Assembly: GCA_008632985.1 (NCBI GenBank)
Contig: QPGO01000220.1
Coordinates: forward strand, 1-64,000
Direction: 5' to 3'
DNA from: Psammoneis japonica
Taxonomy: Eukaryota
Length of the DNA stretch: 64,000 bases
In this document: positions 1 to 37,325 of the stretch, piece by piece
Layout: each line of letters opens with the position of its first letter
Position numbering within the stretch: the stretch's first letter is position 1
Position numbers and translations under genes: made by a program
The notes under the pieces: model-generated
The model's input: the letters and a program-made list of their open reading frames with translations, nothing else
The model's database searches: none
Told to the model about the DNA's origin: nothing

Positions 1-410
1 GCTTTCCTCGGCGGAACAGAGCGGCTGGTGTTGAGGATGCAAGCACATCATGTCAGAAACAATCAACTTTTGTTTGGCAAAGCTGAGTTGCACTCGAGCT
101 CTCTTGGCCACTGGTGACTCCACAGGAAGACTTGGAGGGGGGGCATGCACGGGCACAGATGGTGCTTCGGCAGTGGACTGCGACACCGGATTTCGCGGCA
201 TGTCTTGAACAGGCGAAAAAGGCATGTCCATTCCCGCTGCAAGCAATGCTGACACATCCAGCACTTCTCTAACAATGTTGTCAGGCGTCCGAGATTGATG
301 GAGTGAATGTCCTTCACCGGTGTGGCCCGCCGTAGGGTCCGCCATGGTGGAGGGAGAAATCGGCGAAAAATTGCGCGAAAATGCATGCACATTTTAGAGG
401 CTACGACAGC

Positions 411-857
411 TGCAACACACAGCTGCTGACAAGAGTCAATGCATCACGGCGACGTGTTACAGCCTTTAAATGTCACAAAGGGCGTGACAAAATAACCTTT
501 TGTCTGCATGCATGCTGCACTGTGAATTCACAGCAGAGTGGTTCATCGCAACCATTGGGCAGGAGGCCAGGGTTTCGAAACCCTGAGTGGGAGTTGTCTG
601 CAGCAACGTTGATCACTGTCGAACGCGTGGAAACTCTGTGCAGTTCTGCATGTTCCTTCGTACGTACCCACACTGTTCCGCCAAAACCGTGCAGTGTCAG
701 CACACGTTAGTAAAGAGCCGCATGGACACATGACACATGGGGAGGAGTGCAACACACAGCTGCCAATGAGAGCCAATGTATCATGGCGACGTGTTGCAGC
801 CTTTAAATGTCACAAAGGGCGTGACAAAATAACCTTTTGTCTGCATGCATGCTGCAC
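411..857. repeat. ~110-bp direct repeat pair (411-520 and 748-857)
   Basis: TGCAACACACAGCTGC...TTTAAATGTCACAAAGGGCGTGACAAAATAACCTTTTGTCTGCATGCATGCTGCAC occurs twice; differences are mainly TA/TG/CA swaps. Confidence 0.9.
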
Positions 858-1571
858 AGCAACCACTGGGACTTTTTCAACAGATGAAGTGTCGATTCCC
901 ATGTTTTCGGGTGTGGAGAATTCGACTGTGGGGTCAATTCATCGATTGTCCGGCATCTGGTGCGATTGGCGTTAAGACTTCAATCTCTGGCAATTGGAAA
1001 GCTTTCTTTCAAATGGGTGCTGCCAAAGCCTGTGATGGGAGAAGGTTCTCACGCATTGCAGAATTGCGTCAGATTTTTCACGGTGAGATCCACTGGTTCT
1101 TCCCACACTCATTTGTCCGAGGAACTTTTCAAAGGATTTCAAACCTCTTGAGAGAAGATTGAGTGGGTGATTCTTTTGGCTTGGATGCATTGCTGTGGCT
1201 GTCACTTGATTGGAGTCTAAAGAATGTGCCCGGGCATGCTGCAAAGAATGCACTTCAAGTGTGGAGGAGGAGACAGTTTGCAAAATTGCCTCTTTTTCTG
1301 TTGGCGATCATTCACACATCCATTGCTTGACAAGTTTACTGCGGAGCTCGCACGTGGAATTCTACGGGCCCAATGTCACAAAAAGTCCCACCTGGGACTG
1401 GAACCCATCGGCCGCTGGTCCTGTTGTTGACTCCATTCACAGCGCCACATTTTCAATGTGATTGGCACTCAGCTGGAATGTGTTGGTGTTGAAGAGTGCA
1501 CCAACATTCTTCATGGGGCAATTGCTGTGCCCCATCTCATTTCTTCATTGCTGGACATCAAGTTGCGTCTC

Positions 1572-1627
1572 TTGGTTGGTTGGTTGGTTGGTCAGTGGGT
1601 CGGCGGGTCGGTGGTCAGTGGTCGGCG
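1572..1627. repeat. (GGTT)n-like degenerate microsatellite running into an assembly gap
   Basis: ttggttggttggttggttggtcagtgggtcgg...; reverse complement of the 2289-2464 array. Confidence 0.8.
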
Positions 1628-2288
1628 NNNNNNNNNNNNNNNNNNNNNNNNNNNNNNNNNNNNNNNNNNNNNNNNNNNNNNNNNNNNNNNNNNNNNNNNN
1701 NNNNNNNNNNNNNNNNNNNNNNNNNNNNNNNNNNNNNNNNNNNNNNNNNNNNNNNNNNNNNNNNNNNNNNNNNNNNNNNNNNNNNNNNNNNNNNNNNNNN
1801 NNNNNNNNNNNNNNNNNNNNNNNNNNNNNNNNNNNNNNNNNNNNNNNNNNNNNNNNNNNNNNNNNNNNNNNNNNNNNNNNNNNNNNNNNNNNNNNNNNNN
1901 NNNNNNNNNNNNNNNCAGAATTCTGCGTGCGAGCTCTGCAGTGCAAGAATTTCATTGGTGGACATTTTCATCTTCAAGTGCATTTGTGCCTGTCCACACT
2001 CAAAGTTTTTGGCAATCTGCCTGCCCTGCGCCATTCTCAATGCATTTGCAAATGACGCAGAAGAAAAAAATGTCAAAAACTGTTGAATGGATCACCCAGC
2101 AATTGCACTGCAAAATGATGCACAATTCCACCAAAGTCACGTAGAAACACACGTGCACAACACACAGCACGATCCAAAAAAATGTTGATGTCATGGTTCA
2201 GCAGTGCAAGGTCCCGCCCAGAGCTGGAGCGCATCCCCTGACCCTTTTTTGAGCCTCAGAAGTGCTCAAAGTGGCTAAACCTTCATCG

Positions 2289-2464
2289 CCAACCAACCAA
2301 CCAACGGACCAACCGACCAACCGACCAACCGACCAACCGACCAACCAACCAACCAACCAACCAACCGACCAACCGACCAACCGACCAACCGACCAACCGA
2401 CCAACTGACCAACCAACCAGCCGACCAGCCGACCAACCAACCAACGGACCAGCCAACCCGCCGA
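2289..2464. repeat. Tetranucleotide microsatellite (ACCA/ACCG/ACTG/GCCG units)
   Basis: ccaaccaaccaaccgaccaaccgacc... read directly. Confidence 0.95.
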
Positions 2465-2853
2465 CTGAATGACTGGCTTGCTGGCTGAATGTGAGACGTT
2501 GCATTTTGTTGCCAGCTGCAACATTCTCTCAAGGCAAGCCCAAATTGACCGTGTGTTCTGCCTCTTTGCTCCGTTCCCTCAAGGCCTTCTTGAGCTTCAG
2601 CTTGCTTGCCAACAACAGCTTTCACAGCACTGGGACGCAAAACTCAGCTGCGACAGTCAATTTGTCACCAGCTGGCCCCGCAATGCAGTGAACAGTGGCA
2701 AGTCTCATTGATGACTTGGACACAACAGTTCGAGTCTTGTCAACCATGACTGTTTTGAATTTGAATTAGTCGTGCTTTTTATGTTCAAACGAAAATGAAA
2801 AAAAAACTGACATTTTCCCTCACTTTACATTTCAGATTGGTGCCATCGCGACC

Positions 2854-4192
2854 ATGTCGAGTGCAGGAGTGTCTCTTTCCCGTGGTGGATGCAATGATGC
2901 GGTGAAGACATCAAAGATTTTTGAGGTTGGCGCACTTGTGAAAAATGCTGGAACACTTCTCGAAACGCACGTGAATGTGCTAGAATCTGTGGAGTTGGGG
3001 TCTTCAAAGGGAGACAAGGAGAAGCTGTCAAAAATGCTCAAAGATTTCTTTGTTGTTTCACAGAAACTCAAAGAAGGTTCAACCTCACTGACACGAGCAG
3101 CAGCAAATGTGACATCGTTCAAGCGCGGAAACAATGCCAGTGGTTAACTTGAAAAAGAGAGGAAGAGAAAGACATGCGTGAGGAGGAGAGAAATGATTGA
3201 TCGTTGCAGAAAAAGAATCGTGCATTTCGTGAGATGCAAAACTTTGGCTCCAACTTGGTGATGGCAGGAGCGAAGCACAATGGCGACGAAAACAAAGAAT
3301 TGAAAACTGGTGCTGCCAGGACTGTCATTGGACGGGATGGGGGGATCAAGGCACCATGTCCCCTCAATGGATTTCAACACACACCGGCTGAGGCAACAGA
3401 AGCCATTGTTCAGGTGAAGAAATCTGGACACCGGAATTTGGGAGCTTTTGAAGCTCAAATGATCGAGAAGGGCTGTGTGCCTGTCAAGAAGTCCGCGTTG
3501 AATGAGAAAGTCAAAAAGTGCAACAACGGGATGAGAGTGCCCCCTGCATTGGAAAGAATCTGGCGTGGAGCAAGCTTTCTTTGCCTGGCACAAAACGCAC
3601 ATTTGCGCGCCGTTCACAGATGCCATGCGTGCAAAGGTTGGCTACAATGGCGGGCCCATTCATGACAGCAACAAAGCCGTGGCGATGAAGGATGGTGGAG
3701 CACCACAACTCCAAGGGCAGGGCAGGGAAGAGTTGATGGTGCCGCTTGTGAAACAGCGATTCCATCACATGAAGCAGCTGCGCATTCCCAATGAAGACTG
3801 TCACTTTCACTTTGTGCTGCGGGCATTCGAGGAGAACCTCCCAGCACTTTGCGCATTGGTTGTGCCAGCTGGACATGTCAAGACTTGTGCAAAATCTGAT
3901 TCATGCCTTCTGGCATCTCCACAGCAGGGTGCATTTGAGTTGACTCACGAGGGCTGCAATCCAAGTGCCATGGGCTGCTGCTTGTTTTGGGATGCTGTCA
4001 ATGTCGAAGGCTGGACACGCAGTGGGAAAGTGTTCGGGGCTGGCCAAAGAGAATCGGGCTTTCAAAATTCGACATCAAGAACATCTCAAGGCATCAAAGT
4101 GCAAACAGTTGTCGGAGCTGAAGTCGATGTTGCACCTGCTCCATCCACGTGAGTCCGAGGGGCATGGTTTGGACAATCTCCGACATGGGCAC
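2854..4192 (+). pseudogene. Degenerate TpA-depleted coding remnant (possibly a DNA-transposon relic) interrupted by the copia element and probably continuing at 10764-11030
   Basis: Overlapping broken ORFs (2854-3147, 3204-3665, 3565-4152) with protein-like composition but almost no Tyr; family not recognised with certainty. Confidence 0.35.
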
Positions 4193-4468
4193 TGACAGGA
4201 TTTGAACAGGATTTGGGTGCGCGCGAAATGTCGTGCGATGTTTGGTTTGCCGCGCACAGTTTTGTGTGCTTTAGTTCCGCGCGTTCGCACGCGATGTGGT
4301 TTGCTTTCGAGCCACAAGGCTCACAAGAATGACAACAGTGGCCCGATTGCACCAACTTGCACGTCTTTCGGCTCCTGTGACGGTCTCTGAGCGGAGACTC
4401 ATCTGCTGTTTAGACAGCAGCAAGGAGTTGTTGTTTGAATTCTTGCCATTTGCCTTCGATTTCTGTCA
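4193..4468 (+). repeat. 5' LTR
   Basis: TG...CA termini with 6-bp inverted repeat; followed by GATTGGCAGTC (possible PBS). Confidence 0.95.
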
Positions 4469-5408
4469 GATTGGCAGTCTTGCTCATTGTCAACCCATTG
4501 AGCAACCGCCATCGTCGTTGTTGATTTACCGACAACGCCGTTTCAATTCTGCGTGGACCTCCGTGTGTGTTCTACACACATCGGCAAGTCTGCGCGCATT
4601 CAACACCAGGCATCGGCAGGAATTTAACGTCACCGTCAAGTCTCCTTGCCGCTGGATGTCTGGATTGATCACACTGCCTTTTGTCGCTGAAGACATGCAT
4701 TCAACGGTCATGTCCAAGTCTGTCCTTGATCCTCATCCCTTGATGCACCCATTCAACGGTTAACGGTCAAGAACCCTGCACATTCAAGGATCTTCGTCGC
4801 TGAAGACATGCATGTGTGCATGTCTTCACGGCCAAGAACTTGCACTCACTCTTTGGACTGCGGCTTTGCTGCCACTCTACAAGCACACCGAGTCCATTGC
4901 ACCTGATCTACCCCGGACTGCTGGTGCTCTACAGTTCTGCTGGGTCCACGAGGACCACTGTGAGAGCAAGTGGCCGTGATTGCAGCCTACGTTGGGGCGA
5001 GGGTGTTTTTTCCCGCGTTTGTTCGTTCGTCCACAGTGCCTGACGCCTGCGTCAACTGGCCAGCCTGATCGGGAAATCCAACCGACATAAAACAAGAACG
5101 GTTTGGGGGTCTTGTCCACCTCCAGTCAGCTCACCTGCAGGGGTTTACAACCCGCTGCTCCGCTCGCAAGCAACCCAAAGCGCCGCTGGCTGCGGGTTCG
5201 GACGTGCCGGCACAACTCTACGGACCGGACAGGAAGTTTGGCACTTGACAACGAATGGGATAGCACAGCCTGGCGACTTCTGATTTTAAGGCAGTTCAAG
5301 ATTTCAAGTCAAGTCCATTTCAAGTCAAGTCTGTTCTCACCCAAGTTTCAAGTCTGCCTTCGCGCGTCCCAACAAGAATCGCTTGTCCTGACACCACTTT
5401 TGTCTGCC

Positions 5409-8400
5409 ATGGTTCTCACTCGTCAGCAACAAACCGATGGTTTCGAGCACGTTGTTGGAACCGTGCTTGCCCAAGGTGCTGGGAGCCCTCTTCGTTTGGC
5501 TTTGACCCACGACGGCACGGACTCGTGTCAAGAGCTGTTCACGTTCATGCCGTCCCAAATCGACTCGCTTGAGCACGACAACGGCACCAATGTGATCCCT
5601 TTGCCCCGCGGTTGTAAGAACATGTCAGCAGCTCCAACCAGTCTGCACATTGTCAAAGCACACGAAGGTCTTGACGTTGCCAATGACTCCTCGTTGTTCA
5701 CGCATGAGGAGTTCCTTGCCTGCCGCCTCAGCCCCGACTGCATGTCTTCTGCATCCGTTGGCAGCTCGCCCCTCGCACCTCCGCATGTCACCAACCCGAC
5801 CAAGGCACGCGACCCGGTGCGAGACTTCAAGCGAGGCATCAAGCGTGACCCCACCGCTTTCACGGCTCTCAAATCTGACAAGCAGTGGCACACTTGGCAC
5901 ACCTCACTTGTGGCACAAGCCCGTGCCCAAGACGTCGAGTGCACTCTAGACTCGTCGTACAAACCAACCAGCCCCAAAGACAAACTGCTCTTTGCTGAAC
6001 AGCAAAAGCACATGTTCGCCGTCTTCAAACGCATCCTTCTCACCGACAAGGGCAAGGCTCTCATTCGCGAAAATGTGGGGTCTTCTGACGCCCAGACCGT
6101 CTGCCGCGCCTTGTCCGAGCATGCGCTCGCCTCCACCCGCGCATCTGTCAAGTCCTCCACCTTGCTCACGTGCCTCACCACCGCACGTCTTGGTGATGGC
6201 ACTTGGAAAGGTCCGACCCACAGGTTCATCCTTCATTGGCAAGATCAGTCGCGCAAGTGCGAGGCACTCATCCCAGCCAGTGACCACTTCTCTGAAGGAC
6301 AGAAGCGCGTCATGCTCGAGAATGCCGCACATCCTGTCGAGGAACTCCGTGCTGTCAAGAACCAAGCTGATCAGCATCGCATGCAGAGTGGCAAGAGCCT
6401 CACACATGATCAACATTGTGGCTTGCTCCTCTCCGCGGCGGCTCAATGCGACAGTGCGTTTCAACCCAAGATGACACCTCGAGCTCCCCGACGTGCCATG
6501 TGCGCACACGACGTCCACTCCAAGGAACCGTCTGATGATGTGTTCTGTGACATCGACAGCGACATTGACGTCCTTCAGGCCAATGCTGCCTGCCCCTGCG
6601 GTCCCAGCCTCACCGGTGACCAATGGAAGCATCTCCCTCCCAACCACCAACGGATTTGGGATTCGTTGCCCCATTCCTCCAAGGCGATCATCCTTGAGCA
6701 TTCTCATCTGCCTCCCCGTAATCCGCGAGCCAGCAACTGCCATGAGTCCGTTACGGCCAACCTTCACGACCAACACCTTGGGAGTGACAGTGATGTCAAC
6801 TTGTCCAACACGACTCCTGCCGACTCTGGTGACCCCGCTCCAAATGTGGGTGCCACTTCAGACAATCCCATCCTGGCGCACCTCACCAAGTGCAAGCCAC
6901 TGCCACCCGGTGATCTGCAACGCCTGTTGTCGCCCAACCAAGCCCCCAATGCCAGTCGACCGGGGCCATCCGCCGCTCCCTCTACCTCGCCCGCTCCTGC
7001 CGATGACATGGAACTTGACGGCCGCACTTGCCACCGTGTCAACAACCACAATGTCATTTGCTCTGCCTCCGCTCATCGCTCCACATGCACTGGTGCTCCA
7101 GTTGATCGTGGGGCCAACGGCGGCATTGCTGGCGATGACGTTCGCATCATTGCACGCACCTCTCGCCAAGTCGACGTTCAGGGCATTGACGACCATCAAT
7201 TGGTGGACATCCCCATTGTCACCACTGGTGCCGTCATTGAGACACAGCGTGGTCCCGTCATTGCCATCCTCCATCAGCACGCACACACGGGAAAGGGCAA
7301 GACCATTCATTCCTGCGGCCAGCTCGAATGGCACAAACAGGATGTCAATGATCGCTCTGTCAAGGTGCCCAACGGCTTGCAATGCATTGCCACCCCTGAT
7401 GGCTGTGTCATCCCAATTGACGTCAAGGGCGGCCTGCCTTGTGTTGCCATGCGACCTTGCACTGATGCCGAATGGGACACCCTGCCCCATGACATCCTTG
7501 CTGGTGATGACACATGGGATCCTTCCGTCCTCGATCACTCTGTCACTGACGACGACCAGTGGTGCGACGTGATCTCTGACCCACAGGATGATCCCACTGC
7601 CAACCCATTTGACGAACACGGCAACTGCCATCATCGTGTCGTTGTCAACAAGACCATCATGTCCGCCTCCTTGTCTGCCGATCACGCGTCCGCCCTCGAT
7701 GACCATCTCATTCCGAACGACGACGTGTTCTACGAGTGTCATCTGCACGCGATTGACCCCAAGGACGACGACGTTCCGCCCCTGGAGCGCACTGTGCAGC
7801 CCAAGGACCCCCCCTTCAAGTCTCTTCGGCCTTGCTTTGGCTTCCAACCTGCCGACATGGTTTGTCGTACTTTCGACTGCACCATGCAGTGCGCCCGCAT
7901 GCCCGCCGGTGCACACCTTAGGAAGGCCTGCAAATCGCCCAACCCTGCCCTCAATGTGCACCGCCGCAACGAGCCCATCGCCACTGTGTGGACGCTTTGT
8001 TGGCATTGCTGAGCACGTCGGCCACCAAATGACCTTCAAGATTCTCTCTGACGAGACTCAGAAGATCCTCTGCCGGTCCAACGTACGATCCGCTGCCACC
8101 GATCCTGCCGTTCGAAACCTGCGTCTTGATCCTCCTGATGGGGAGCCACCTGAACCCATCATCAAATCTCGCCATGACGACAACCCCGTCGATTCACCCG
8201 ATGGGGAGATCAGGACACCCAAGATGCCAGTTTTCGATCCGCAAGACATCATCGGACGCACCTTCCTCATGCAGCCACAAGAGGACGGACAGCGCCACAG
8301 AGCTCACATCGTCAAGGCCGTCGAAGACCACGAATGGAAAGTGAACGGCAATCCCGAGCTCACTGAGTTCGTCTGCTCTGTCAACAACGACGAATGCGAG

Positions 8401-10430
8401 GAAGTCCTGGCCTGCAACGACATCATGAATCACATTGAGCAAGAAGACGAAGACACTGCTGTTTGGAAATTGCGGCGCATTGTGTCACACGAAGGACCTC
8501 TGAAGCCTCATGACCCAACCTGGAAAGGCTCAAGCTGCAACATTGTGCTTGAACGGGAAAGTGGGGAGATCACGTCCGAGCCTCTTGCCATCATCGCCAA
8601 GGACGACCCTGTCACCTGCACCATCTATGCATGAGAGAACAGACTTCTCGACACTGATGGCTGGAAGTGGTTCCGCACCATCGCGAGGCGCCAGAAGAAG
8701 CCATTCCGCATGGCCAACCAAGCCAAGCTTTGCTCCTTCCACACTGCACCTCGCTGCAAGTACGATGCGAAGTTCCCCGGAACTGCAAACCTGCCATGTC
8801 ACTAGACGAACGCAACGGCAACCGCAAATGGGGAGACGCAACTAATCTCGAGATGGACCAACTCAAGGAATACGAAGTCTTCCATGACTGCGGGCCCTCC
8901 GAGTCTTCCACTCCTCCTGCGGGACACAAGAAGATCCGAGTGCACCCAGTGTACGACGTGAAACACGACGGTCGCCACAAGGCACGACTCGCAGCCGATG
9001 GGCACCTCACGGACGTACCCATCGACAGTGTCTGCTCCGGAGCAGTCTCCCTCCGTGGCCTTCGGCTGATGATTTTCCTGGCCAAACTCAACGAGTTGGA
9101 GACATGGGCCACCGACATTGGCAATGCCTGCCTTGAAGCCACCACCAAGGAGAAGCTCTACATTGCAGCCGGACCTGAATTTGGCAAACTCAAAGGCCAC
9201 ATCCTTGTCATCCACAAGGCCCTGCATGGACTGCGCAGCTCCGGCCTCCGCTGGCACGAGCGCTTTGCCAACTGCCTGCGAGCTGAAGGCTTCTTCCCCT
9301 GCCGCACCGAACCCGACATTTGGATGTGCAGGAACAGCGACCACTGCGAACACATTGCCATTTATGTGGATGACCTCGCCATTGCCATGAAGGACCCTCA
9401 ATCTTTCGTCGACACTCTCATGGAAAAGCACAAGTTCAAGCTCAAGGGTGCGGGACCGATTGAGTTCCATCTGGGCTGCGACTTTTCCCGGGATCCCGAC
9501 GGCACCTTGTGCCTGTCTCCGCGCAAGTGCATCGAGCGCATGGTCAACAGCTGCACCCGACTGTTTGGGGAGAAACCTGCCACCAACGCCCTGTCACCTC
9601 TGGAGAAGGGTGACCACCCCGAACTGGACACTTCCGAACTGCTGGGGCCCGATGGCATTCACAAGTTCCAGTCTCTTGTTGGTTCACTCCAATGGGCAGT
9701 GTCCCTTGGTTGAATTGACATCACCACGGCCGTCATGTCACTCTCTAGCTTCCGAGCTGCGCCCCGTCAAGGCCACTTGGATCGTGCCAAACGTGTCTGT
9801 GGGCACCTCTCCAAGATGCGACACGGCGCTCTCCGCGTTCGCACGGAAGAGCCTGACTGTTCGGATCTCCCTGCTCCAGCCCATGAATGGATGCATTCCT
9901 TGTACGGCGAAGCAGAAGAGATGATCCCAAAGGATGCTCCACTGCCCCTTGGCAAGTTTGTCACTGCCACCCACTGCGTCGATGCAAACTTGTGCCATTG
10001 CATGCTCGCCGGACGCTCTGTCATGGGAATGCTCCACTTCCTCAACAAATTCCCGGCTGATTGGTTCTCTGAGAAGCAAGCCACCATGGAGACTGCGACC
10101 TGCGGGTCTGAATTTGTTGCCGCAAGGACTTGTGTCGAGCAGATTGTCGACCTGCGCATCACCCTGCGCTGCCTTGGCGTCCCGATCCGTGATGTCAGCC
10201 ACATGTTCAGTGACAACAAGTCGGTTGTAGACAGTGCCACCATCCCACACTCCAAGTTACACAAGCGACACACCGCACTGTCGTTCCACCGTGTGCGTGA
10301 GGCAATTGCCTCTGGTTGCCTTGAGTTCCACTTCATCGAAGGCTCCCGCAACCCTGCTGACATTCTCAGCAAGCACTGGGGTTGCTCCCAAGTCTGGGAC
10401 CTTCTCCGCCCCCTCATGTTCTGGAACTTC
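5409..10430 (+). pseudogene. Copia gag-pol pseudogene (gag, aspartic protease, partial integrase, RT, RNase H)
   Basis: DFKRGIKRDP (gag), VDRGANGG (protease), GRFVGIAEHVGH (IN C-term), HKARLAADGH/DIGNA/YVDDL (RT), GSEFVAAR/DNKSV/NPADILSK (RNase H); frameshifts near 7990 and 8760; TGA stops at 8632-8634 and 9711-9713. Confidence 0.93.
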
Positions 10431-10482
10431 ATTCCATCCAAAGTCGAATCTGTTTCTGTGGCTCCTCAAGCAAACTGGGGAG

Positions 10483-10758
10483 TGACAGGATTTGAGCAGG
10501 ATTTGGGTGCGCGCGAAATGTCGCGTGCTGTTTGGTTTGCCGCGCACAGTTTTGTGTGCTTTGGCTCCGTGTGTTCGCACGCGATGCAGTTTGCTTTCGA
10601 GCCACAAGGCTCACAAGAACAACAACAGCCGCCCGATTGCACTGACTTGCACGTCTTTTGGCTCCTGCAACGGTCTCTGAGCGGAGACTCATCTGCCATT
10701 TAGACAGCAGCAAGGAGCCATTGTTTGAATTCTTGCCATTTGCCTTCGATTTCTGTCA
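10483..10758 (+). repeat. 3' LTR
   Basis: Ungapped match to 5' LTR (about 24 substitutions by manual alignment); preceded by short purine tract GGGGAG. Confidence 0.95.
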
Positions 10759-11342
10759 GGCACTTCCAAAACTTGGAAGCATTTGTGGGCATGGGCTTTT
10801 CAGAATCAAATGGAACAGAGAATGTTGTCAATGCTCAAGATGGTGTTTTCATTTGGAGCAAACGCACATTGAAGAAGCTGCAAGAGGCCAAGATGAGCGG
10901 TGCCGAGATGAAGTCGAAACAATTGCATCTAGTCTCACACATGCTTGAGTGCATTTACGATCTGCTCATTTCCCCATCCAAGAATGTTTCAGTTAGTTTC
11001 GGTTTCGAAATGTTCTTGGGAACCTTTAACTGATGCTATAGCAGTGGTTGCATCCACATCGTAGCCGGCTAATGATCATTGCCGGAATTTGCAACACCAC
11101 GCGTGATGCGCTGTGTGCATTGTGCATGCCGTTTCACACAAAAAACATACAGTACTACCGTACGAGCTCTGCACTGAGGGTAATGCAATTATGTTTTTTA
11201 AAGCTTTTGGAGCTCNAAGCCGGTCGACCGGCTTTTTTCCTACACCTGTAGATACGAAGTAGGAGAGTAGGGCCCAGCCTACCTACCGGTATTTATTAGT
11301 CTACCGGCGTGAGTTCCGAGACAGAAATAAGCTGTACCTACC

Positions 11343-26392: not shown

Positions 26393-27724
26393 CATCTTGG
26401 GACGCATAACACTGGTTAGTCACGAGGGAAATTGTATAGAGCAATATTAATCATGGACCGTCACTACTATAGCTAGTTGGAATACACAGAAGAATGCTTG
26501 GAATCGCAGAACAATCCCTCCTTTAGCGAATTGAATTGAGCGAGTTCTGAGAACTAGCGATTTGATTGCTCATTTGGAAGAAATGAATGATGCTACTGAA
26601 ATATCTAGTTTAGTGCCCATCAAGATATTATGCAACACGGGAGGGTTTAGCAAATGTCCGATAGCGGGTCCAATGTTTCGAGTGAACCCTGAAGTAAGAC
26701 AACGTTTGTTTGAAAGCAAGTGCAGCTTTGCAATGCTGAAAATTAAAATGATGTCAACTACAGCTAATTTGCCTTACTGAGAAAACAGACTCCCCCCCCT
26801 CTCTCTCTCCTCTTGGTGTCCTCGTTTTCTATAAGAGGTTGATCCATGCACCCGCATCAGAAGCAAGCAAAGGTGAATTTTCGTCGGGCATGTCTTCGTC
26901 CGAGGTCTGAATCATGTGACACGAAAGAAACTGCCCAACTTTCCTTGACACCACTTTTCCATGCTCGGTCTCGGGTTCCAAAAAGGACGTTGAGGCAATC
27001 CTTGCAAGATGTCACAGACCAGAATTTCTTTAGTCAGCAAGTCTTGAGAATGCCATCATCGCAGCACTGTAGGATTGAATCCCGCTCCGCACTTGATCAT
27101 TGTCAACCTGGCAACAAGCACTCCAAACAACAAAGCAGAAAGCCCAAAGCAAAGAGACAGGCCCAGAGGGAGCATTGGGTGAATCCCAGTTGATCACAGG
27201 AGAGGTCAGCACAGCAGAAGAAGACACCAGCAGTTTGCTCAGTGGACATCACAAGCCAAGTGCAAAGCCATGCATGGCTGCTGGGTTGTCATTGGTGCTG
27301 ACAATCTCAATGTGCACTTGTCAATGATGTGCTTTTTGCAGTTTTGCAGAGAGAGAAAAGCAAGCTTGGTGAGTCCTTCCAATGTTGATCACAGAGTGAA
27401 ACTGCATGAGTGCTCACTTGCTGTTTCACTGCCAAGGGCAGAGAAAGACAAGTGTGCTCCACTGGGCTGCTGACAGCAGAGTGCAAAAAATCGCCTCCAC
27501 ACCCACAACAAAGTCCAGCTCTTTTGATTTTTAGCACCACCAATGTGACTTCCAGCTGGCCTGATTCAGGCGCAACATCCCTGTTGATCCTGCATCATTT
27601 TGGCCCCTCTTTGTTGTTCTTCTAAGTGCCAGCACAGCCTCTGCCAAACTCAGAACAGTGCTCCATGGTGACGAGTCAGGAGATTTGCATCTGTGCAGCC
27701 AACCACCAAAAGAAATGGCACAAT

Positions 27725-28095
27725 CATCATGATGAAACAGCAAGAGTCCAGTGGTGCAAACCCAGCCAGGGCCTGCACATCCAGGCAGGCTGCTTGTGCT
27801 GATCTGAGCAAAAAACACTCTCTCTGTGACCACCAGAGAGAGCAACTGTGTCAGAGGAGCTGGCAGCAGGTGATGGCAGGGCCTGTGACCAGCATGTGGC
27901 TGCTGTGTTCATGACAAAACAGCAGGCATCTGGCAGCCCAAACCCAGCCATGACCTGTGCACCCAGGTGGGCTGCTTCTGCTGATCTGAGTGAAAGGCCC
28001 TTTTTGCAACCAGAGAGTGGCTGTGGCAGAGTGGCCAGCAGCAGCAGCTGATGGCAGGGCCTGCAACCAGCAGCATGTGGGGCTGCTGTGCTCTT
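27725..28095. repeat. Degenerate ~185-bp tandem duplication
   Basis: AAACCCAGCCA...GCTGATCTGAG and GATGGCAGGGCCTG..ACCAGC..ATGTGG each occur twice. Confidence 0.7.
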
Positions 28096-29807
28096 TGGTG
28101 GAGAGGCCTGACACAAGAGTCTGGGTGTCAGTACCAGCCTGACGCTGACAACATGTGCAATCACTGCCTGCTCCCCACACCCCAGGCCATGTCCCCACAC
28201 CACACATCCCTTCAATCATGGGCTCAGAGCAAACCCAGGCAGGACACCATTGGTTTGGCCAGGAGATTGAAGATGCTCTGTGGGTGGATGTGAGCATTCA
28301 TTTGAATGTTGAGTGCTGATGCTCAAACACAGTGTGAAAAGACATGTGTTGCGTGCACCAGCCATGCACATGCAGAGCCTCTGTGACAACAGAAATTGCA
28401 ATTTTTGGGATTTTTTGCCAACGCCAAAATCAAACATCACAATGCCATGCTGAGTGCTGGTGAATGCATGTGGCTGATGATGAATGTCCTAACTGAGCAT
28501 CATTTTTTGAAGAGGCTGATGCCCCCTGCAGATGATGAGAAACTCCCAACCAGTGCCAAAAAGTCACAGAATGAGAGTGATTGCTCCAAGGATGAGGTGT
28601 GGAAAACACAGCTGCTGAGTGCTCAAAAAGGCTGGCACAAGAATGACACAACAGCTGCTGATGCCATGGAGTCAACATGACAAACAAACAAAAACAATGC
28701 TGGGTGGGGGGTGAGCCATGTGTGTGTGTGTTTTGGCTGCAAGGCTCTGTGTTGCTCTTGAACAAAAGAGCGACATTGCACTTTGTTGCAGAGGTGGTTG
28801 GAGTGTGGTGCTTTTGGAACCCTAACCTGCTGCAATGATTTTTGACTGAGAGTGCTGCAGCAGCAACTCTGCTGTCAGTTGAACACAAGAGAGACAGTGG
28901 CATTGCTGACAGTGGGGTCAGACAGCATGGCTGCATGGACTGATCTTGCGCATGCGCAGCAGGCTGAGTGGTTGCCAGATTGTGAAGGCACACGTGCATG
29001 TGTGAGGTGCAAGCAGGAGGCCAAAATGTGCAGAGTTGTTGATGCTGAGTGAGTCAGCAGATGGTGGATTTTTTCCTGTGCTTGATCTGTGTGCTCTTCA
29101 CGTGGAACACGACAATGTCTGGGTGTGTTGTGGGGGGTTTGCACATGACACACAACACACATGTTGTGCTCTTAACATGCACATGATCCAACTCAAAAAA
29201 GTGCCAGTGCAGAACACTCCAAAACAAGACTGGAGTCTGGTAAAAAAATCTGTTTAAAGTGGTCAGACGAGCAGGGTTGTTTTGAAGATTTCTCAAGTTG
29301 CCCTCATTTTTGTTGGGTGTGTCTCAAAACATCTGCCAGCCACTGGCTCAGCCAAAATGTGCTGCCCCTCTCCTTCACACACAAACAGCAGCCACAGCAC
29401 AATGATGCCCAATGACCAGCACCACAGCAGCATGGCAAGCAAAGCAAGTGGTGCTCACCAATTTCCACGAGTGCAGATGTTTTGAGATGAGATCAAAGTG
29501 ATTGTGGATGACACATGCTTTGTTCCTGGGCCAAGTTGCATTTTTTTCTCATCACTTGTCATCATGTCATTTTACAATGTTTTGAAACACTGTTTTGTGT
29601 GAGATTCATGTGAGCACTTGCTTGGAAAAAGCAAGGTCTCAAGTGCATCTCACTTCTTTGGCCACACCACCAATGGCTTTTCTTGCAGGGCGTTGCCAGT
29701 TGGGCAGTCACATTAAACCTGGCTGGGCACAACCAACTGGCCCTGTCCAGGTTTGCTCATGTGCTCTTGTTGTTGCTGCTTGTTGTGTTGCTTGCACCAG
29801 GTGACAA

Positions 29808-30219
29808 GGTTGTGAGGAAAAGCTGAAAAGAAAAAAGAAGGCTTCAAAGGCTCCGCTGGTGGCTGGAGATCTGTTTGCACACCCGAGTCGTGCATGAGTT
29901 TGCACTCTGTTGACACCGGTGTTCTGTGGGGCACTGTGTGTCTGACATCAGTGATCAAAGCATGCATGTGGTGCTGCTGTGTTGTCACAATGAGATCATT
30001 TTGATTCAAGATGACGCTTCTGTTGCCTCTGTTTTTGCTTCTCTCGGAGGCGGTCAGGGATTGGTGCAATGCATGGGATGGGACCAAACGCACCCTTGAC
30101 AACACATTTGAAGTCCACCTGAATGATGGCCAAACTGTGATGCAAGGGTTGGGCAGCATCACACTGGGCAACGGAATCTGCTGCAAGATGTCTGCAAGCC
30201 CCCACCTTTGCATCAGCCA
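29808..30219 (+). pseudogene. Hypermutated partial copy of the upstream region and 5' CDS of the 37326-38405 gene
   Basis: Aligns to about 37125-37552 (TTGTGAGGAAAAGCTGAAAAG; GGGCAGCATCACACTGGGCAACGGAATCTG). Confidence 0.92.
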
Positions 30220-30829
30220 ATGATGTCAATGCAGTCACATCATTTGCACCTGCACATGATCTCCAGAGCTGCAGCCCTCATTCTTTCTCTGCCTTGCTGG
30301 GTTTGGGTGGATGCAAACATGAGAAAGACAAAGTGTTGGTTGTGAAAGCTTTTTTGCTTCTTTGGCTGTCAACACATCTGAGCATTTCCTCTTTGCATGA
30401 CATTGACCTGACGAGAGTGTGAGTTGTTGTGTGGGAGCGGCGATGTGGCAATGTGGGTGTCACCAACACCCCACAGCCTTCAAGAACAGAGCAGAAAACT
30501 TGTCTTTGTCATCTTCTTTGTGGATGATGGGTGAATGTTTTGAGGCAGATCGTGCTCTGTTCTCACTTTGTACACTGGCCAGTGCCGTCGTGTTCTCTCC
30601 TCTGTGTCTTCAGAGTGCCAACATGCTTTCTGCAGTGAGGGAATTGTTTGTGGTTGTTGATGCACCTGCCCCCCAAGTGCCAAAGAAAGCCATGTCCTGA
30701 GCTTTTGCTTTTTGCAGATTGTGGTGGTGCCCTTCTCGTGACCAGGATTCTGTCCATGCTTTGCCACTGCTGTGGCAGATGTGTGTGATGCATGGTGTGC
30801 TTTCTTCAACACCCTCCAGGTCTCCAACA

Positions 30830-31830
30830 GGACTGATCAGAGCATGTTGCTCTGCTCTTGCAGGACTTGTGCCTTCTTCATCTCCATCAGTGGCTCCATC
30901 ATCTGTTTCAGGCACTCTCCTGAGTGAAGCTCCAAGCAAAGCCCCCACTGACAAACCTTCTCAAGTCCCCAGTCCACATCTCCAACTGTCAAATCCATTG
31001 TCATGCTGTCTTTGTCTCCATCCATGGTTCCCAGTGACATGCCGACACCATCATCTGTTGGACCCTCCAGTTCTCCATCTGACAAGCCAAGTCCAGCCAA
31101 TTGAGCACAGGACTTGTGCCTTCATTGGCTCTCTGAGCACCCACATCATCTCCTTCTGAAGGTGCGCCAGGCAAGCTCCAAGCAAAACACCCAGTGATGA
31201 AACTTCTGGTGCACCATCTGCTGTTCCATGTCAATCACCAACCAGCAAACCTGGTGTTCTTGCACTGCTTTCATCTCCATCCTTGGTTCCCAGTGATGTG
31301 ACGACACCATCATCATCTGCTGCACCCTCTGGTTCTTCATCTGATGAGCCCAGCCAATCAAATGCAGAACTTGTGCCTTTGTTGGCTCCCTCAGCAGCTG
31401 CACCATCTTTTTCTGGAGGTGTGCCAAGTGAAGCTCTGGGTGAACACCCAGTGACAAAACTTCTGGCACTCCATCTGCTGCTCCACGCCAATCTCCAATC
31501 GTCAAATCTGGTGTTGCACCACCTTCATCTCCACCATTGGTTCCCAGTGATGTGCCAACACCATTGTCATCTGCGGCACCCTCCAGCTCTCCATCTGATG
31601 AGCCCAGCCAATCAAATGCAGGACTTGTGCCTTTGTTGGCTCCCTCAGCAGCTGCGCTGTCTGTTTCTGGAGGTGCGCCAAGTGCTGAAGCTCTCCAGGT
31701 GTTAGACCCAGTGACAAAACTTCTGGCACTCCATCTGCTGCTCCACACTAATCTCTAACTGGCAAATCTGGTGTTGCACCACCTCCATCTCCATCCTTGT
31801 TTCCCAGCGACATGCCGACAGCAACATCAG
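30830..31830 (+). repeat. Four ~250-bp tandem units encoding degenerate Pro/Ser-rich stalk (PSDVPTP..SAAPSSSPSDEPSQSN)
   Basis: GCAGGACTTGTGCCTT-like anchor near 30860, 31107, 31365, 31618; resembles a pseudogenised cell-surface protein. Confidence 0.8.
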
Positions 31831-34200
31831 ACAGGCTGGAAATTTCCATCTGGCGGGAAATTGATTGACACCCTGTGTGCAACCAAACAACCAAACAGTT
31901 GTTAGCTGAGGGTTCTGGTCAACTCCTGGTGACCAAGGGGTGGACTTTAAGAGCATTCATTGCAGTTGGCTTGGTTCATCTGGTGTTGTTTTGGTCCGAC
32001 AACACCCAAGGCCATCAGCAGACTGACTTGATTTTTCCATCTGGACAATGGATGGACACCCCAAGTGCAAGAACCAACTGGCTGTGCAGTTGTCAGCCAA
32101 GGGTTCTGGCCTTCTTGCTGTGTGCCTGGGCTGGACTTTAAGAGCATTTGTTGTCATTGGCAAGGTTCATCTGGTGTTGCTTGGGGGGTCAAAATTGCCC
32201 AATGATGGCAGCCAGCAGGAGACAGCTGACATGATTTTTCTGTTGGGACAATGGACAGATTCATCAAGCACGACAAACAAACCAAACAATTGTCAGCAGA
32301 GGGCTCCATTCAACTCATTGTGATCCAGGGGCAGACTTTGAGAGCATTTGTTGTGGTTGTCTTGGCCCATCTGGAGTTTTTTTGGCACAACATTGCCCCA
32401 GGCTGGAAGCAGAGATGTGCTTGAATTTTCCACCTTGACAATGGATGGACACCCCAAGTGCAACAAAGAAACCAAACAGTTGTCAGCTGAGGGTTCCAGC
32501 CAATTCATTGTGCTCCTGGTGCCAACTTTAAGAGCATTCATTGCAGTTGCCTTGGGTCATCTGGTGTCATTTTGGCCCAGCATTGCCAAAGGCAATCAGC
32601 AGTCAGACTTGATTTTTCCATCTGGGCAATGGATGGATGCCCCAAGTGCACCAAACTGGCCATGCAGTTGTCAGCCAAGGGTTCCAGCTTTCTCACTCTG
32701 CCCCTGGGGTGGACTTTAAGAGCATTTGTTGTGGTCAGCAAGGCTCCTGTCATCTGGCATTGTTTTGGATCAAGAGGTCACACAAGGGCAGCATCAAACA
32801 GACTCAATCTTTCTGTCTGGACAATGCACCAGGTTGTCAGCAGAGGACTCCAGCCAACTCACTGTGACCTGCAGGTGGACTTTAGGAGTGGCTGGTGGTT
32901 GGCTTGTTTCATCTTGTGTTGTTTTGGCCCAACTCTGCCCCAGTCTGGCAGCCGAGACAGGCTTGCTTTTTCCATCTGAACAACAGACACCCCAAGTGCA
33001 ACAAAGAAGTCAAACAGTTGTCAGCTGAGAGTTCTGACCAACTTGCTGCCTGTGACCCAGGGATGGATGAGAGAGCTTTCATTGCGGCTGCCTTGGCTCA
33101 TCCCTCTGGAGTTACTTTGCCCCAACATTGCCCAAAAACAGCAGCAGACAGACTTGATTTTTTTGTCTGAACAATGGACAGACAACCCAAGTGCTGCAAA
33201 CTGACCATGCAGCTGTCAGCCAAGGACTCCAGCCAATTTGCCATGGCCCAGCAGTGGACTTCAATGGCATTGTTGTGGCTGGCTTGTCTTGTCTTGTGTT
33301 GTTTTAGCCCAACATCACACCAGTCTGGCAGCAGACAGAGACTTGCATTTTCCACATGGGCCATGGACAGACACCCCAAGTGCAACAAAGAAACCAATCA
33401 GTTGTCAGCTGAGGGCCAGCTCACTGTGACCCAGGGGTGGGCTTTAAGAGCACTCATCATGGTCATCTTGGTTTGGCCTTTGGTGCTGTTTTGGCCATGT
33501 GACAGACTTTCAAAGCATTCATTGTGGTTGCCTCAGTGTTCATCTGGTGTTGTTTTGGCCCAACATCACCCAAGAGCAGCAGCAGACAGACTTGAATTTT
33601 TCATCTGGACAATGGATGGACACCCCAAGTGCTGCAAACTGACCATGCAGCTGTCAGCCAAGGACTCCAGCCAATTTGCAATGACCCAGGGGTGGGCTTC
33701 AATGGCGTTGTTGTGACTGGCTTGGCTCGTCTTGCACTGTTTTAGTCCAACATCACACCAGTCTGGCAGCAGACAGAAACTTGCATTTTCCACATGGACC
33801 ATGGATGACACCCCAAATGCAACAAGAAACCAAGCAGTTGTCAGCTGAGGGTTCTGCCCAGCTCACTGTGACCATGGTCATCTTGGTTTGGCCTGTGCTG
33901 GTGCTGTTTTGGCCATGTGACAGGCATTCACTGTGATTGCCTTGGTGTTCATCTGGTGTGTTTTGGCCCAACATCACCCAAGAGCAGCAGCAGACAGATT
34001 TGAATTTTCATCTGGACAATGGATGGACACCCCAAGTGCTGCAAACTGACCATGCAGCTGTCAGCCAAGGACTCCAGCCAATTTGCCATGACCCAACAGG
34101 GGTGGACTTTAACAGCCAATGAACAAACCCCAAGCAGTTGTCAGCTGAGGGTTCTGGCCAGCTCACTGTGACACAGAGGTGGCCACCTTGGTTTGTCATT
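31830..34200. repeat. ~190-bp tandem satellite-like array, about 12 diverged units, A/B alternation
   Basis: GACACCCCAAGTG-like anchor near 31868, 32055, 32448, 32636, 32986, 33181, 33370, 33619, 33807, 34026, followed by CAG(T/C)TGTCAGC. Confidence 0.88.
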
Positions 34201-37200
34201 CTATGGTGTTGCATCAGCCATGTGACACCCCAGCCCAGCAGCAGATGCAACAGAGTCCCTCTCACCAATGACTGGACACCTGAAGTGGCAACAAAGGTTG
34301 TTGAAATGCCGCAGCTGTCTTGCTTTGTTTCCAACAAAGAAGCACACATGGCTTTTGAAAAAATGGCAGAACTTGAACACACTTGCAACATTCTGCAGTG
34401 GCAGATGGGACATGTTGCATCAACAAATGTTGAACTCCTTTGAGGGAGAAAATCACAATCACAGGTTGGCCCTCAGAAAGGGCTCAGAAGACAGCTGTGC
34501 CTTGAGAGTCATCATCTTTGCACTCATGCTCTGAGGCATCTTGCTGCAACTGGGATTCTTTTGCTTGGTTCTTTGGTCACAAAATGACCCCAAGGTGAAC
34601 ATTGCTTGATTTCTTCTTTCTGGCAATTTCCACCAACAACTTGCCAATTGGAACATGTGATGTCACCCCTCCACAAAGATCAATGCTCCCACCAGCTCCA
34701 AATGTTTCACAGCTTCTTTGTGCAGCTTTTTGACTCTTTCTGTGTCAAACACATGCAAGTTGGCATCAGCACCTGTGTCAGCCAGGTTCATTGACTGGAA
34801 AACAAGCAAAGTGCATTCCCCTCCAGAAGCCAGAAAATCAGCATCAACTTTGTCTTTGTTTTTTGGTGGAGAGAATGTTTTCTAGATGGAGTCTTGTCTG
34901 TTGCCTGTCCTCTGTGATCTGATTTGCTGAACAGCTGTTGGCACTGCAACTGTGGTGGTGAAGATGGGGCAATGTCCACAACCTTCCCAGTTTCCTCCAA
35001 AGCCACCAGAGTTGCACCTTTTGGTTGGGCATCACATGTCAGAGTCAGAGTGAAGAAGACCTGCTGACTGTAATTTCTGGCTTTTGTTGCTCCTGCTTGT
35101 GCTCTGCTCTTGCCTTGTTTCTTTCCAGCATGCAAGTTTTTGATCCTTGTCTTCAACTTCTCAATCTCATCAAACCCACCTGACTTCTCTCTGCCTTTCT
35201 TGCCAAGCAAGATCTCTCTTCTCTGCAGCAACAACAGGACAATGCTGACAATGGGATTGCACCATCACATTGCAATGCATGGCACAGTGCACCCCAATGC
35301 CAATGACATTGCTGCCAGCAGGAACACTTGAGCCAAAGAACAAAGAAGTGGCAGAGTCCTTCATGGCAGGGGCAGTGAATGGATGTCAGGGTGATGTTGA
35401 TGAAAGGAACACCAAAAAAGTTAAGATGACTGTCAACTCAACCAAAAGAAGCAGACATCAAGGTGAGAACATCATGAAAGTGCTGGCTTGATTTTGTCAT
35501 GTGTCCTTTTCCAAGAAGTGTCCTCAACAGCTCTGCTTTTTGCATTTTCAGCAGAGCCAAGGAGACAGTGCAGTCAAACCCCAATAAAAACATTTGGCGA
35601 GTCATCCTCAGAACAGTTTTTCTCTTTTGTTTTTCTGGTGACTCAAAAAAAGAATGCATTTGACCACCATTCTTGCAGCCAGAATGTCAAAGAATCCTTT
35701 GCCTGCAAGTCTTGTCCCGCAAACCCAACAGGATGAGAAAACCATGGATGGGGCTCAATGATCAAATGTTTGCTGCATTCAGAATCAGAAGAAACTGTGT
35801 GGTGGAGTGCCACATGGAAAGCCAGTTCCACCAACATGCACTGACTTGGATCATTTTGTTGCGCTCCACTTGACTCTCTGTTGATGCACGCGGCATTGCA
35901 CCACAGGCCCCAGATGAGAACAATGCTGTGCCTGAAGCACAGTCCAGGAATGCTGGTGGAGGAGGGCACCAGTTCATTCCTGGAGCTCTGGCAATGGGTT
36001 GCTCCCCAAAAGATTGGAGGTGCCCTCAAACCCAGAAACATGTGTGAGACAGCGGCTGGCATGCAGGAATGAAACCCAGCAATGTCCAAGAAGGAAGACC
36101 CACAAACTCACCTGGAAAAAGGTGAAAACTCCAACAATGCAACTGGGAAACCCTGTTTCCAGCAATTCCTCCAGAAAACGTGCCATGGTGCATCCAAAGT
36201 CATGCATGAAGAAGTTCGTGCAGAAAATCCAGCAACAGTTGTGTGCAGTGTCCCAAAACTGCTCAACAAAGTTGAAGATGCTGCACCCACAGATCAGATC
36301 TGGATCTTTTTGGTGTGTGTTTGCATGTGTTTGAGGATGCCTTGCATGTTGTGCAGTGTCCATGAAGATCTGGATCCAACCCAGATGTTGTTTTGAAAGT
36401 CCAAACAAACAACATGCATGCAGCACAGCAATTGACCATGTGTTTTGGCAACACCAGGAGAGATCTGGGCAGTGCACAAGCAGGAGGAGCACCACAGACA
36501 ATGCTGCAGGTTTCACAATGGTCGTTTGCAGTGTTGTGGTTTTGACAATTCATTGCAGACTCTGCAACATCATCATCACAGACTCCCAACACTGTGAGAG
36601 TGCCCATGACGCTGTGTTGTGGGGAAGCCATGGAGTCTGGTGCACCACATCCAGGCCTTTCTGAGACACTTGCTTGTGCAGCGCACTGCTCTCATGGAGA
36701 GGAGCACAGCTGTGATCTTGGGTCAACTTCAAAGCTGCCTTTTTTCATTGTGGCTTGCTTCTTGTGCACCCAGCCTTGGCTCTGAGGGTCTGCCAATTTG
36801 CTGGAATGACCCAATTCCCCCCCTTGACCCGCTTTGCCGGTTTTCAAAAAGGCCACTCATTGCTGCACACCCAGAGTGAAAAGTGCTGCATGCTGCTCTC
36901 TTCATTTACACTGGCACCTTGCAAACTGCTGGTCCGCTTCCCAGTGTGACGCCGCCAGAAAAAAAAAACTCCAAGACCTGGCTGGCGCTGTTGAGCAATC
37001 TTTCCAAGTGTTGGAGGCTTGATGGCAGATGCAGGAACATCAAGAAGTCAAAGAGGAAAACCTCGGTCTAACCCGAGGATGGCATTGCTGACAATGGGGT
37101 CAGTGACAACAGATTCAATGAGAGATTGTGAGGAAAAGCTGAAAAGAAGGCAAGAATGAAGAAGGCCATTCAAAATGACGGCAGGAAACCGAACGCGAAT

Positions 37201-37325
37201 CGCGCATGAGGTCACCGTGCACCGTCGTGTTTGAGTCACCTTGATGACACCAATGTTCTGCGATCTGCGATCTGCGATCTGCGAAATTGTGAGATGTTGT
37301 GATCGTACTGAGCATCACCATCACG

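Follow-up and report, generated by a model that had tools for sequence, protein, structure and literature searches.

We analysed a window of 64,000 nucleotides from the diatom Psammoneis japonica (contig QPGO01000220.1 of assembly GCA_008632985.1, positions 1 to 64,000 of the forward strand); "the window" hereafter means this whole stretch. Positions 4186-10759 hold a defective Ty1/copia-type long terminal repeat (LTR) retrotransposon of a pennate diatom nuclear genome. A preliminary description of this DNA had noted that its Gag-Pol translation carries cysteine or histidine where tyrosine is usual. According to our analysis, the cause is loss of the dinucleotide TpA rather than loss of tyrosine as such. 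The window is a diatom example of TpA-directed repeat hypermutation, which is saturated, organized in blocks and accompanied by decay of CpG; the preliminary description was correct and understated the case.

Organization of the copia element

The element consists of the following parts, where obs/exp denotes the ratio of observed to expected dinucleotide counts:

4186..4469, plus strand: 5' LTR of 284 bp, beginning with TGGG and finishing with TGTCAG; TA obs/exp 0.13, CG obs/exp 1.07
4470..5408, plus strand: leader from the 5' LTR to the start of the gag-like frame, TA-poor; the alignment of relatives begins at about 5442
5409..7985, plus strand: gag-like region and protease (APVDRGANGG) up to the integrase, frame 3, open, with Tyr changed to Cys or His; 30-39% identity in tblastn
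7972..7985, plus strand: junction with a frame change, at which about 165-180 residues of the relatives (probably the integrase catalytic core) are gone
7972..8768, plus strand: C-terminal part of the integrase and linker, frame 1; 46-49% identity in tblastn; an in-frame TGA (8632-8634) stands in place of the relatives' Arg
8769..10430, plus strand: reverse transcriptase and RNase H-like region, frame 3; 62-65% identity to relatives; an in-frame TGA (9711-9713) replaces the Arg of the relatives
10476..10759, plus strand: 3' LTR of 284 bp; TA obs/exp 0.07, CG obs/exp 0.92

The two LTRs are direct repeats that align without gaps at 91% identity. The gag-pol reading is made up of three frame segments, each of which can be aligned from end to end with copia-type polyproteins of 1800-2000 residues from metagenomes and diatom data; four of these relatives (P0005, P0009, P0023 and P0032) served as tblastn queries for the coding segments. 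Pfam RVT_2 was recovered within 8769-10430 with 77.5-79 bits (E=5.3e-22, cut-off 31.6), compared with 95 and 107 bits in two intact relatives and 86 bits in P0327, a relative discussed below. No Pfam family matched 5409-7985. At the junction, the alignments jump over residues 983-1161 of P0005, 892-1070 of P0009, 909-1079 of P0023 and 969-1132 of P0032. Judging from motifs recognised in the consensus of the relatives, the missing residues would be the integrase core; no integrase family of Pfam matched the window or the intact relatives. Just before position 7988, seven contigs of run X1, which is compared with the window below, have a different sequence. The element is dead: two in-frame stops interrupt it, its frame changes twice, and the probable integrase core is deleted. 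Searches with three polyproteins (tblastn) found no copy of the copia family in the window besides 4186-10759.

Replacement of tyrosine in the Gag-Pol translation

The three segments were aligned with 52 full-length relatives, and a column counted as conserved when one residue was common to 70% or more of them (734 columns). Tyrosine was retained at 6 of 39 conserved Tyr columns. The others now read Cys (20), His (10), Phe (2) or Trp (1), and the exchange to Cys or His thus dominates among the Tyr losses (30 of 33). Pooled retention of all other residues was 603/695, each of them lying between 68 and 100% (Fisher test against Tyr, p=1.2e-21), which amounts to a loss of 85% for Tyr versus 13% for other residues. 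At a column threshold of 90%, Tyr was retained at 5 of 28 columns. The same shift is seen in the composition of the 1678 residues of the element, with 9 Tyr (0.54%), 63 Cys (3.75%) and 90 His (5.36%), while relatives have median values of 3.9-4.85% for Tyr, 1.0-1.2% for Cys and 3.7% for His.

The peptides that had first drawn attention to the element (KALHGL, DIGNACL, HCEHIAIYVDDL, ETATCGSEF, HCVDANLCH, LRCLGVPI, KHWGCSQ, HQHAHTGKG, PDGCVIP, MRPCTD, EPDCSD and APVDRGAN) are all present in the standard-code translation of 5409-10430. The supposition that Tyr is usual at these positions is borne out by the majority consensus of 25 relatives, which reads KALYGL, DIGNAYLEA, VYEYIAVYVDDL, ETATYGSEF, HYVDANL, LRYLGVPI, KHWGY, HQYA, DGYxIP, RPYTD and EPDYSD; the relatives thus have Tyr, and not Cys or His, at these columns. 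Likewise, the proline of the protease motif, encoded by CCA at 7098-7100, stands where leucine had been expected, and the consensus of the 25 relatives is SLVDRGANGG.

The changes follow the TpA dinucleotide

Among 125 replacements at conserved columns, 101 can be explained by one base change, and these comprise TA>TG (29), TA>CA (15), CG>CA (12), CG>TG (7) and a remainder of 38. The proposal that Tyr>Cys and Tyr>His correspond to TA>TG and TA>CA is supported by counting substitutions in their sequence context. At codon position 2, A>G was found at 20 of 39 sites after T (Tyr>Cys) and at 6 of 198 sites after A, C or G (p=2e-13); by preceding base, the latter divide into 5/61 after A (Asn>Ser and Lys>Arg), 0/46 after C and 1/91 after G. 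At codon position 1, T>C occurred at 10 of 39 sites before A and at 2 of 52 sites before T or G (p=0.004). The exchanges Leu>Pro, Val>Ala, Ile>Val or Met, Thr>Ala and Lys>Glu at TA, also where the dinucleotide spans a codon border, obey the same rule. The loss of tyrosine codons on which the preliminary description was framed is therefore real, but the actual target is the TpA dinucleotide, which was also lost from other codons and from the non-coding LTRs.

Across the element, TA obs/exp is 0.10-0.13 (0.13 for the internal part, 4470-10475), and the values for TG and CA are 1.6 and about 1.35, respectively. The events inferred on the plus strand of the element comprise 35 changes to TG and 18 to CA. 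Clustering of TG versus CA events along the element was not significant (20 runs versus 24.8 expected, z=-1.48). TAA and TAG are nearly absent from both strands of 4500-11500, leaving open frames of 200-400 codons in all six frames.

The G+C content of the element is 0.54-0.58, compared with 0.47-0.50 in the adjoining DNA. This difference, the abundance of the family and the fact that the changes all run from A:T to G:C would fit GC-biased gene conversion among repeat copies, fixing such changes. Gene conversion gives no reason for a restriction to TpA, however, as is evident from the contrast between sites after T and sites after other bases given above, and in a second depleted block of the window CG>TG/CA changes, that is G:C to A:T, were fixed concurrently. 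We therefore regard gene conversion as highly improbable.

TpA-depleted blocks and their borders

On the scale of 1-kb intervals, TA obs/exp in the window falls into two classes, with genes at about 0.4-0.8 (low end 0.38) and values of 0.01-0.18 over 1001-11000, 27001-37000 and 63001-64000. These are runs of 10, 10 and 1 consecutive intervals at or below 0.18, in which TG and CA lie mostly at 1.3-2.2 (1.6-2.2 in blocks 2 and 3). In the three blocks pooled, TA makes up 0.40% of dinucleotides versus 3.75% outside, and TG and CA each make up 10.49% versus 7.26%. The preliminary description had treated the pattern as a trait of the copia Gag-Pol. It is indeed found there, but it extends over entire blocks of the window, satellites and a captured gene fragment included. 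The blocks and the features within them are as follows:

975..10929, no strand: block 1, the copia element together with about 3.2 kb to its left without a recognised family and 170 bp past the 3' LTR; TA obs/exp 0.03-0.18 per kb (1001-11000)
26850..37300, no strand: block 2, degenerate DNA; TA obs/exp 0.02-0.09 and CG obs/exp 0.02-0.19 per kb; borders at 26832/27031 and 37069/37306
29903..30224, plus strand: gene-fragment copy within block 2, duplicating the 5' part of a gene (37237-37557)
about 30860..34230, no strand: satellite-like tandem repeats within block 2, with copies 65-84% alike
62600..64000, no strand: block 3, running past the window end; a single TA after 62589; TA obs/exp 0.01 and CG obs/exp 0.18 in 63001-64000

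The borders are sharp. TA-dense intergenic DNA at 10930-11340, 26400-26832 and 62000-62590 turns TA-free within about 200 bp; to the right of block 1, TA is dense again from 10930, with 30 TA within the non-coding interval 10930-11340. The right end of block 2 lies 20 bp 5' of the ATG of the next gene. These borders bear on the explanation that TpA>TpG/CpA is simply the commonest mutation everywhere and that genes keep their TA by selection, with no targeting or defence involved. Genic TA obs/exp is itself lowish (0.38-0.8 per kb) and the blocks are those parts of the window without intact genes, as this explanation would have it. It does not account for intergenic DNA outside the blocks that is dense in TA and switches to TA-free over so short a distance. 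Moreover, the LTR pair lost nearly all of its TA versus about 3% change at other sites, a contrast far beyond a genome-wide bias, and we consider a general bias improbable.

Several smaller features accompany the blocks. Short TA-poor dips in intergenic DNA at 22096-23213 and 53137-53557 may be small insertions or solo LTRs; CG obs/exp is 0.54 in 22001-23000 and 0.61 in 53001-54000. Tandem repeats outside the blocks, at 46969-47598 and 21053-21200, have a normal TA content, and repetition alone, at this short scale, therefore does not bring about TA loss. To the left of the element, no Pfam domain was found in 1-4186 except for a match to a microsatellite: a 12-base repeat at 2290-2460 that reads PTNQ/PTDQ and yields a spurious hit to the Pfam "PT repeat".

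Direction and timing of the TpA loss

The two LTRs of an element are identical when it integrates, and differences between them record what happened afterwards. Within the 284 bp of the pair, TG of one LTR faces CA of the other at six dinucleotides, TA faces TG at one, and only one TA is common to both. In the same comparison, 16 CG are shared and CG stands against TG at 5 places only. Since single losses of CpG are too few for double independent losses, the six TG/CA pairs descend from TA and not from CG. TA was thus mutated separately in each LTR, and therefore after integration. If the choice between TG and CA was random, so that an equal number of concordant sites is hidden, each LTR originally held about 14-15 TA in 284 bp, which is a normal density for the spacers of this genome.

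A second pair of copies points in the same direction. The genic copy at 37237-37557 has 7 TA in 308 aligned bp, and at these places the copy within block 2 (29903-30224) has TG or CA six times, AA once and TA never. CG stands against TG or CA at 17 places of this pair, the block copy having lost most of its CG. The whole of 29903-30224 is devoid of TA. Because a captured gene fragment of about 320 bp lost all of its TA, the loss does not need transposon sequence. The product of the parent gene (37326-38402) looks secreted, is rich in Cys at its C-terminus and matches no Pfam family. Between copies of the satellite in block 2, we counted 7 and 14 TG/CA double differences.

These comparisons decide largely against an origin before integration, be it ADAR-like editing of RNA, deamination of complementary DNA (cDNA) or amplification of a TA-poor master copy. 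Such an origin would fit the great abundance of the family in run X1 and the finding that the best-supported differences private to the window include no TG or CA against TA. Yet TG versus CA at six places between the LTRs of one insertion is impossible before integration, both strands of the body are affected, and DNA other than the transposon, namely the gene fragment, the satellites and the 170 bp past the LTR, has been stripped of TA as well. Editing of the ADAR or APOBEC type was rejected on the six LTR differences and on the 35 TG plus 18 CA events in the body, and an origin before integration is, in our judgement, quite improbable. The direction of the change, its dinucleotide specificity, its timing after integration and the block structure are thus demonstrated in the window itself.

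CpG decay and dependence on neighbouring bases

The preliminary description had pointed to abundant CpG in the element and had taken this to exclude decay of methylated cytosine. The abundance was confirmed (CG obs/exp 0.83), but decay of CpG is present too: 19 of the 101 single-base replacements are CG>TG or CG>CA. It is a second, weaker process in the element, beside the loss of TpA. Both in-frame stops are TGA at positions where relatives have Arg. CG obs/exp is 0.5-0.93 in block 1 and 0.02-0.19 in blocks 2 and 3. As the blocks differ in their loss of CpG, two processes with different speeds or histories have acted on the same DNA.

Survival of TA, expressed as its frequency in the blocks divided by that outside, depends on the neighbouring bases:

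ATAT: survival 0 (0 in the blocks, 202 outside)
ATAC: survival 0.008
ATAG and ATAA: survival about 0.04
CTAC, GTAA and GTAC: survival 0.11-0.13
CTAG: survival 0.21
CTAA: survival 0.33
TTAA: survival 0.38

ATA/TAT is nearly extinct and TTAA is retained best. Whether base -2 or base +1 is the deciding neighbour was not separated by the gains in trinucleotides between blocks and genic DNA.

Relatives and sister copies

The reverse transcriptase shares 58-69% identity with hundreds of environmental and diatom copies, the closest protein being 69% identical among the 120 "longer" and 120 "near" matches listed. An exact-match search with a host protein gave no result. TA loss is not a trait of this family. 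In 80 related copia loci from metagenomes, TA obs/exp has a median of 0.715 and a minimum of 0.33, and several of these loci have lost CpG and kept TA. Only 2 of their 734 1-kb windows fall below 0.3, both of them in the metagenome contig L060, where TA obs/exp over 1-1500 is 0.17-0.27 and an open frame reads KALHGL, GNAHLEA and DSVHSG. One of the 120 "near" matches, P0327, contains 0.91% Tyr and has retained it at 4 of 17 conserved columns (otherwise Cys 6, His 4, Phe 3). The Tyr of KALYGL is His in the window and in L060 and Cys in P0327, and that of GNAYLEA is Cys, His and Tyr, respectively. With these differing states, the three sources therefore represent independent events and not a shared lineage.

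In run X1, the flanks of the element have a depth of 54-62, and the summed contig depth over the element is 47,000-214,000 (summed depth is not copy number). With a similarity of at least 80% to the element, 13205 contig pieces were counted, and 2599 of these reach at least 99%. This suggests that the copia family is very abundant in this run. The base states of other copies were read from the 40 places listed out of 431 at which the element and X1 differ. In the 18 best-supported differences, the window has TG or CA against CG at 10 and keeps CG at 4; on the basis of these 10, CpG decay is ongoing in the window copy.

The right border of block 1 is covered by an X1 contig of single-copy depth (10709-11239), with 9 listed differences from the window. 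At 4 of the 9 (11028, 11038, 11040 and 11153), all just outside the block, the window has TA and X1 has TG or CA, and none shows the opposite. Small as this sample is, it hints that the edge of block 1 is polymorphic and the process recent. The border at 10709-11239 may be polymorphic or spreading, and the TpA process is possibly still active.

Proposed mechanism

Taking these lines of evidence together, we posit with good confidence that a dead copia element underwent regional transition hypermutation, restricted to TpA and acting after integration, with a slower decay of CpG alongside. After integration, the A of TpA was converted to G on either strand, which is read as TA>TG or TA>CA on the plus strand. 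About 85-90% of TpA was removed in this way, turning Tyr codons into Cys or His codons, erasing TAA and TAG stops and raising G+C. The process is regional: all repeat-like blocks of the window were struck, irrespective of their sequence, and it comes to a halt within about 200 bp of neighbouring genes. The slower CpG>TpG/CpA decay in the same blocks would be the mark expected of cytosine methylation. The blocks may correspond to silenced chromatin and the process to a defence, targeted by region rather than by homology, as the untouched genic parent of the fragment suggests. The chemistry is probably enzymatic deamination of adenine in DNA to inosine, which is read as G; the same chemistry has been proposed for Bigelowiella natans.

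Several points weigh against this reading. The mechanism, with its enzyme, modified base and chromatin state, is inferred from base changes. Independent mutation of each copy is likewise indicated by the LTR pair alone rather than directly: at the 18 best-supported differences from X1, TG or CA against TA was found at none, and no sister copies bearing TA were seen among the differences listed. Run X1 may itself be the source of the assembly to which the window belongs and hence not independent support. Selection may have preserved the TA of the genic copy, which makes this copy weak evidence against targeting by homology. The baseline of the context analysis is mostly coding DNA. The label "repeat or foreign DNA" is established for the copia element, the satellites and the gene fragment only, and a Pfam search of 37 open frames and of 18 read-throughs in six frames, in which stops were written as X, recognised neither transposon proteins nor any other family in the non-copia blocks, the spurious "PT repeat" hit aside. 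Finally, no target-site duplication was found at the element; the 5 bases outside the LTRs differ, being CGACA versus GGCAC or GCACT.

The base changes would look the same if not the adenine but the thymine of TpA were modified, for example by oxidation of the TET/JBP type to 5-hydroxymethyluracil, which mispairs with G and gives T>C. TpA is its own reverse complement, and T>C before A is indistinguishable from A>G after T. In dinoflagellate DNA, 5-hydroxymethyluracil occurs preferentially at TpA and TpC. No feature of the window bears on this alternative. What speaks against it is that the sole published proposal we found for the signature is an ADAT2-like adenine deaminase, and this is a proposal only. 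We regard thymine modification as unlikely and continue to favour adenine deamination.

Comparison with known systems

To our knowledge, eukaryotes offer hardly any known cases in which foreign DNA is mutated in a targeted way beyond fungal repeat-induced point mutation (RIP) and the deaminase editing of animals. Fungal RIP resembles the present case in that transitions arise after integration, in a dinucleotide context and in repeated or foreign DNA, and destroy reading frames block by block. Its outcome is the opposite: RIP changes C to T mainly at CpA, creates TpA and lowers G+C, whereas here TpA is destroyed (0.02-0.18) and G+C rises. RIP is also triggered by homology and mutates both copies, while the genic parent of the fragment captured in block 2 has stayed untouched. 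We rejected RIP on the grounds that TpA is depleted, not enriched, and that the G+C of the element lies above that of the adjoining DNA. Decay of methylated CpG in silenced transposons likewise leaves an excess of TG and CA and is present here as the second process, but it cannot turn TAY into TGY or CAY, and in the element CG stands at 0.83 while TA stands at 0.10-0.13. With APOBEC3 and ADAR in animals, the present case shares the hypermutation of retroelements, there driven by deaminases; those enzymes act before integration on cDNA or RNA and on one strand, whereas in the window the LTRs became different after integration and changes lie on both strands.

As a retrotransposon, the element resembles the diatom Ty1/copia elements known as the "CoDi" groups in having LTRs, a single long gag-pol frame and a reverse transcriptase of the RVT_2 family. 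Unlike these relatives, the copy is dead: the probable integrase core is missing, its reading is interrupted by 2 stops and changes frame twice, and 33 of the 39 conserved Tyr are gone.

The closest parallel comes from Bigelowiella natans, a rhizarian chlorarachniophyte. Hypermutation of A:T to G:C specific to TpA was described only in 2026, for one rhizarian alga and two viral insertions and without an enzyme (preprint, Mettrop et al., 10.64898/2026.01.13.699255). In mutation-accumulation lines of this alga, the mutation rate of two integrated viral regions is about 1000 times that of the remaining genome; A>G or T>C accounts for 230 of the 231 mutations, every one of these transitions falls on TpA, and 124 clusters of windows poor in TpA and rich in CpA and TpG were found (10.64898/2026.01.13.699255). 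The authors propose an ADAT2-like adenine deaminase as a hypothesis, and the same source cites the preference of ADAR for U before the edited A (10.64898/2026.01.13.699255). The words diatom, Phaeodactylum, stramenopile and retrotransposon are absent from the text of the preprint (10.64898/2026.01.13.699255), and we found no report of a TpA-hypermutation signature in diatoms in the literature searched.

As in the integrated giant-virus and virophage DNA of B. natans, the TpA process in the window comprises only TpA>TpG/CpA transitions, is limited to blocks of foreign DNA amid DNA that behaves normally, and leaves clustered 1-kb windows with depletion of TpA and enrichment of CpA and TpG. TpA-poor coding sequences of B. 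natans are enriched in reverse-transcriptase domains, a likeness to the copia target here. Measured in the same terms, 44 of the 101 single-step replacements are TA>TG or TA>CA, and three sharp-bordered blocks lie within one 64-kb window; the cut-offs used for B. natans (<=0.43 and >=1.52) are quantiles of its own genome and are not exactly transferable to the window. The differences are equally clear. The host here is a diatom and thus a stramenopile, and what is hit is an abundant LTR retrotransposon together with satellites and a gene fragment rather than single-copy viral insertions. Loss is near saturation, with TA obs/exp of 0.02-0.13 versus 0.45 for the virus region of B. natans. Here, decay of CpG accompanies the loss of TpA and survival of TA depends on its neighbours, unlike in B. 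natans. New mutations were measured in B. natans, while the diatom case is known from its trace in the sequence.

It is a real possibility, though one we lean slightly against, that both cases reflect an old chromatin-targeted DNA-editing defence common to diatoms and chlorarachniophytes, a "reverse RIP" that would put transposons, satellites and integrated viruses out of action by changing the A of TpA to G, likely by means of a DNA adenine deaminase. In the diatom, this defence would be saturating, spread a few hundred bases into the flanks, be polymorphic at its borders and prefer ATA/TAT. If it is indeed shared, TA obs/exp below 0.2 together with an excess of CA and TG would be a genome-wide marker, which could reveal the species possessing the system, and its presence or absence across genomes could lead to the responsible gene.

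Implications for genome surveys and annotation

The window adds a second major lineage to the TpA process, one that is ecologically dominant and some members of which are genetically tractable, and extends the reach of the process from viruses to transposons. The signature is also an inexpensive sequence marker with which genomes can be surveyed and the list of candidate enzymes shortened. For annotation, the loss of TAA and TAG gives rise to long false frames in all six frames of such blocks, and "proteins" poor in Tyr and rich in Cys and His may be predicted from them. The ages of transposons in such blocks would be overestimated when derived from LTR divergence.

Further features of the window

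The window stems from a scaffolded draft, with assembly gaps at 1628-1915 and 23390-23563 and a single N at each of 11216, 51209 and 53196. In keeping with a pennate diatom as host, a dehydroquinase/shikimate-dehydrogenase gene lies near the element, and its product found its closest matches, at 58-66% identity, among proteins named from Cylindrotheca, Nitzschia, Fistulifera, Seminavis and Mayamaea, all of them raphid pennate genera.

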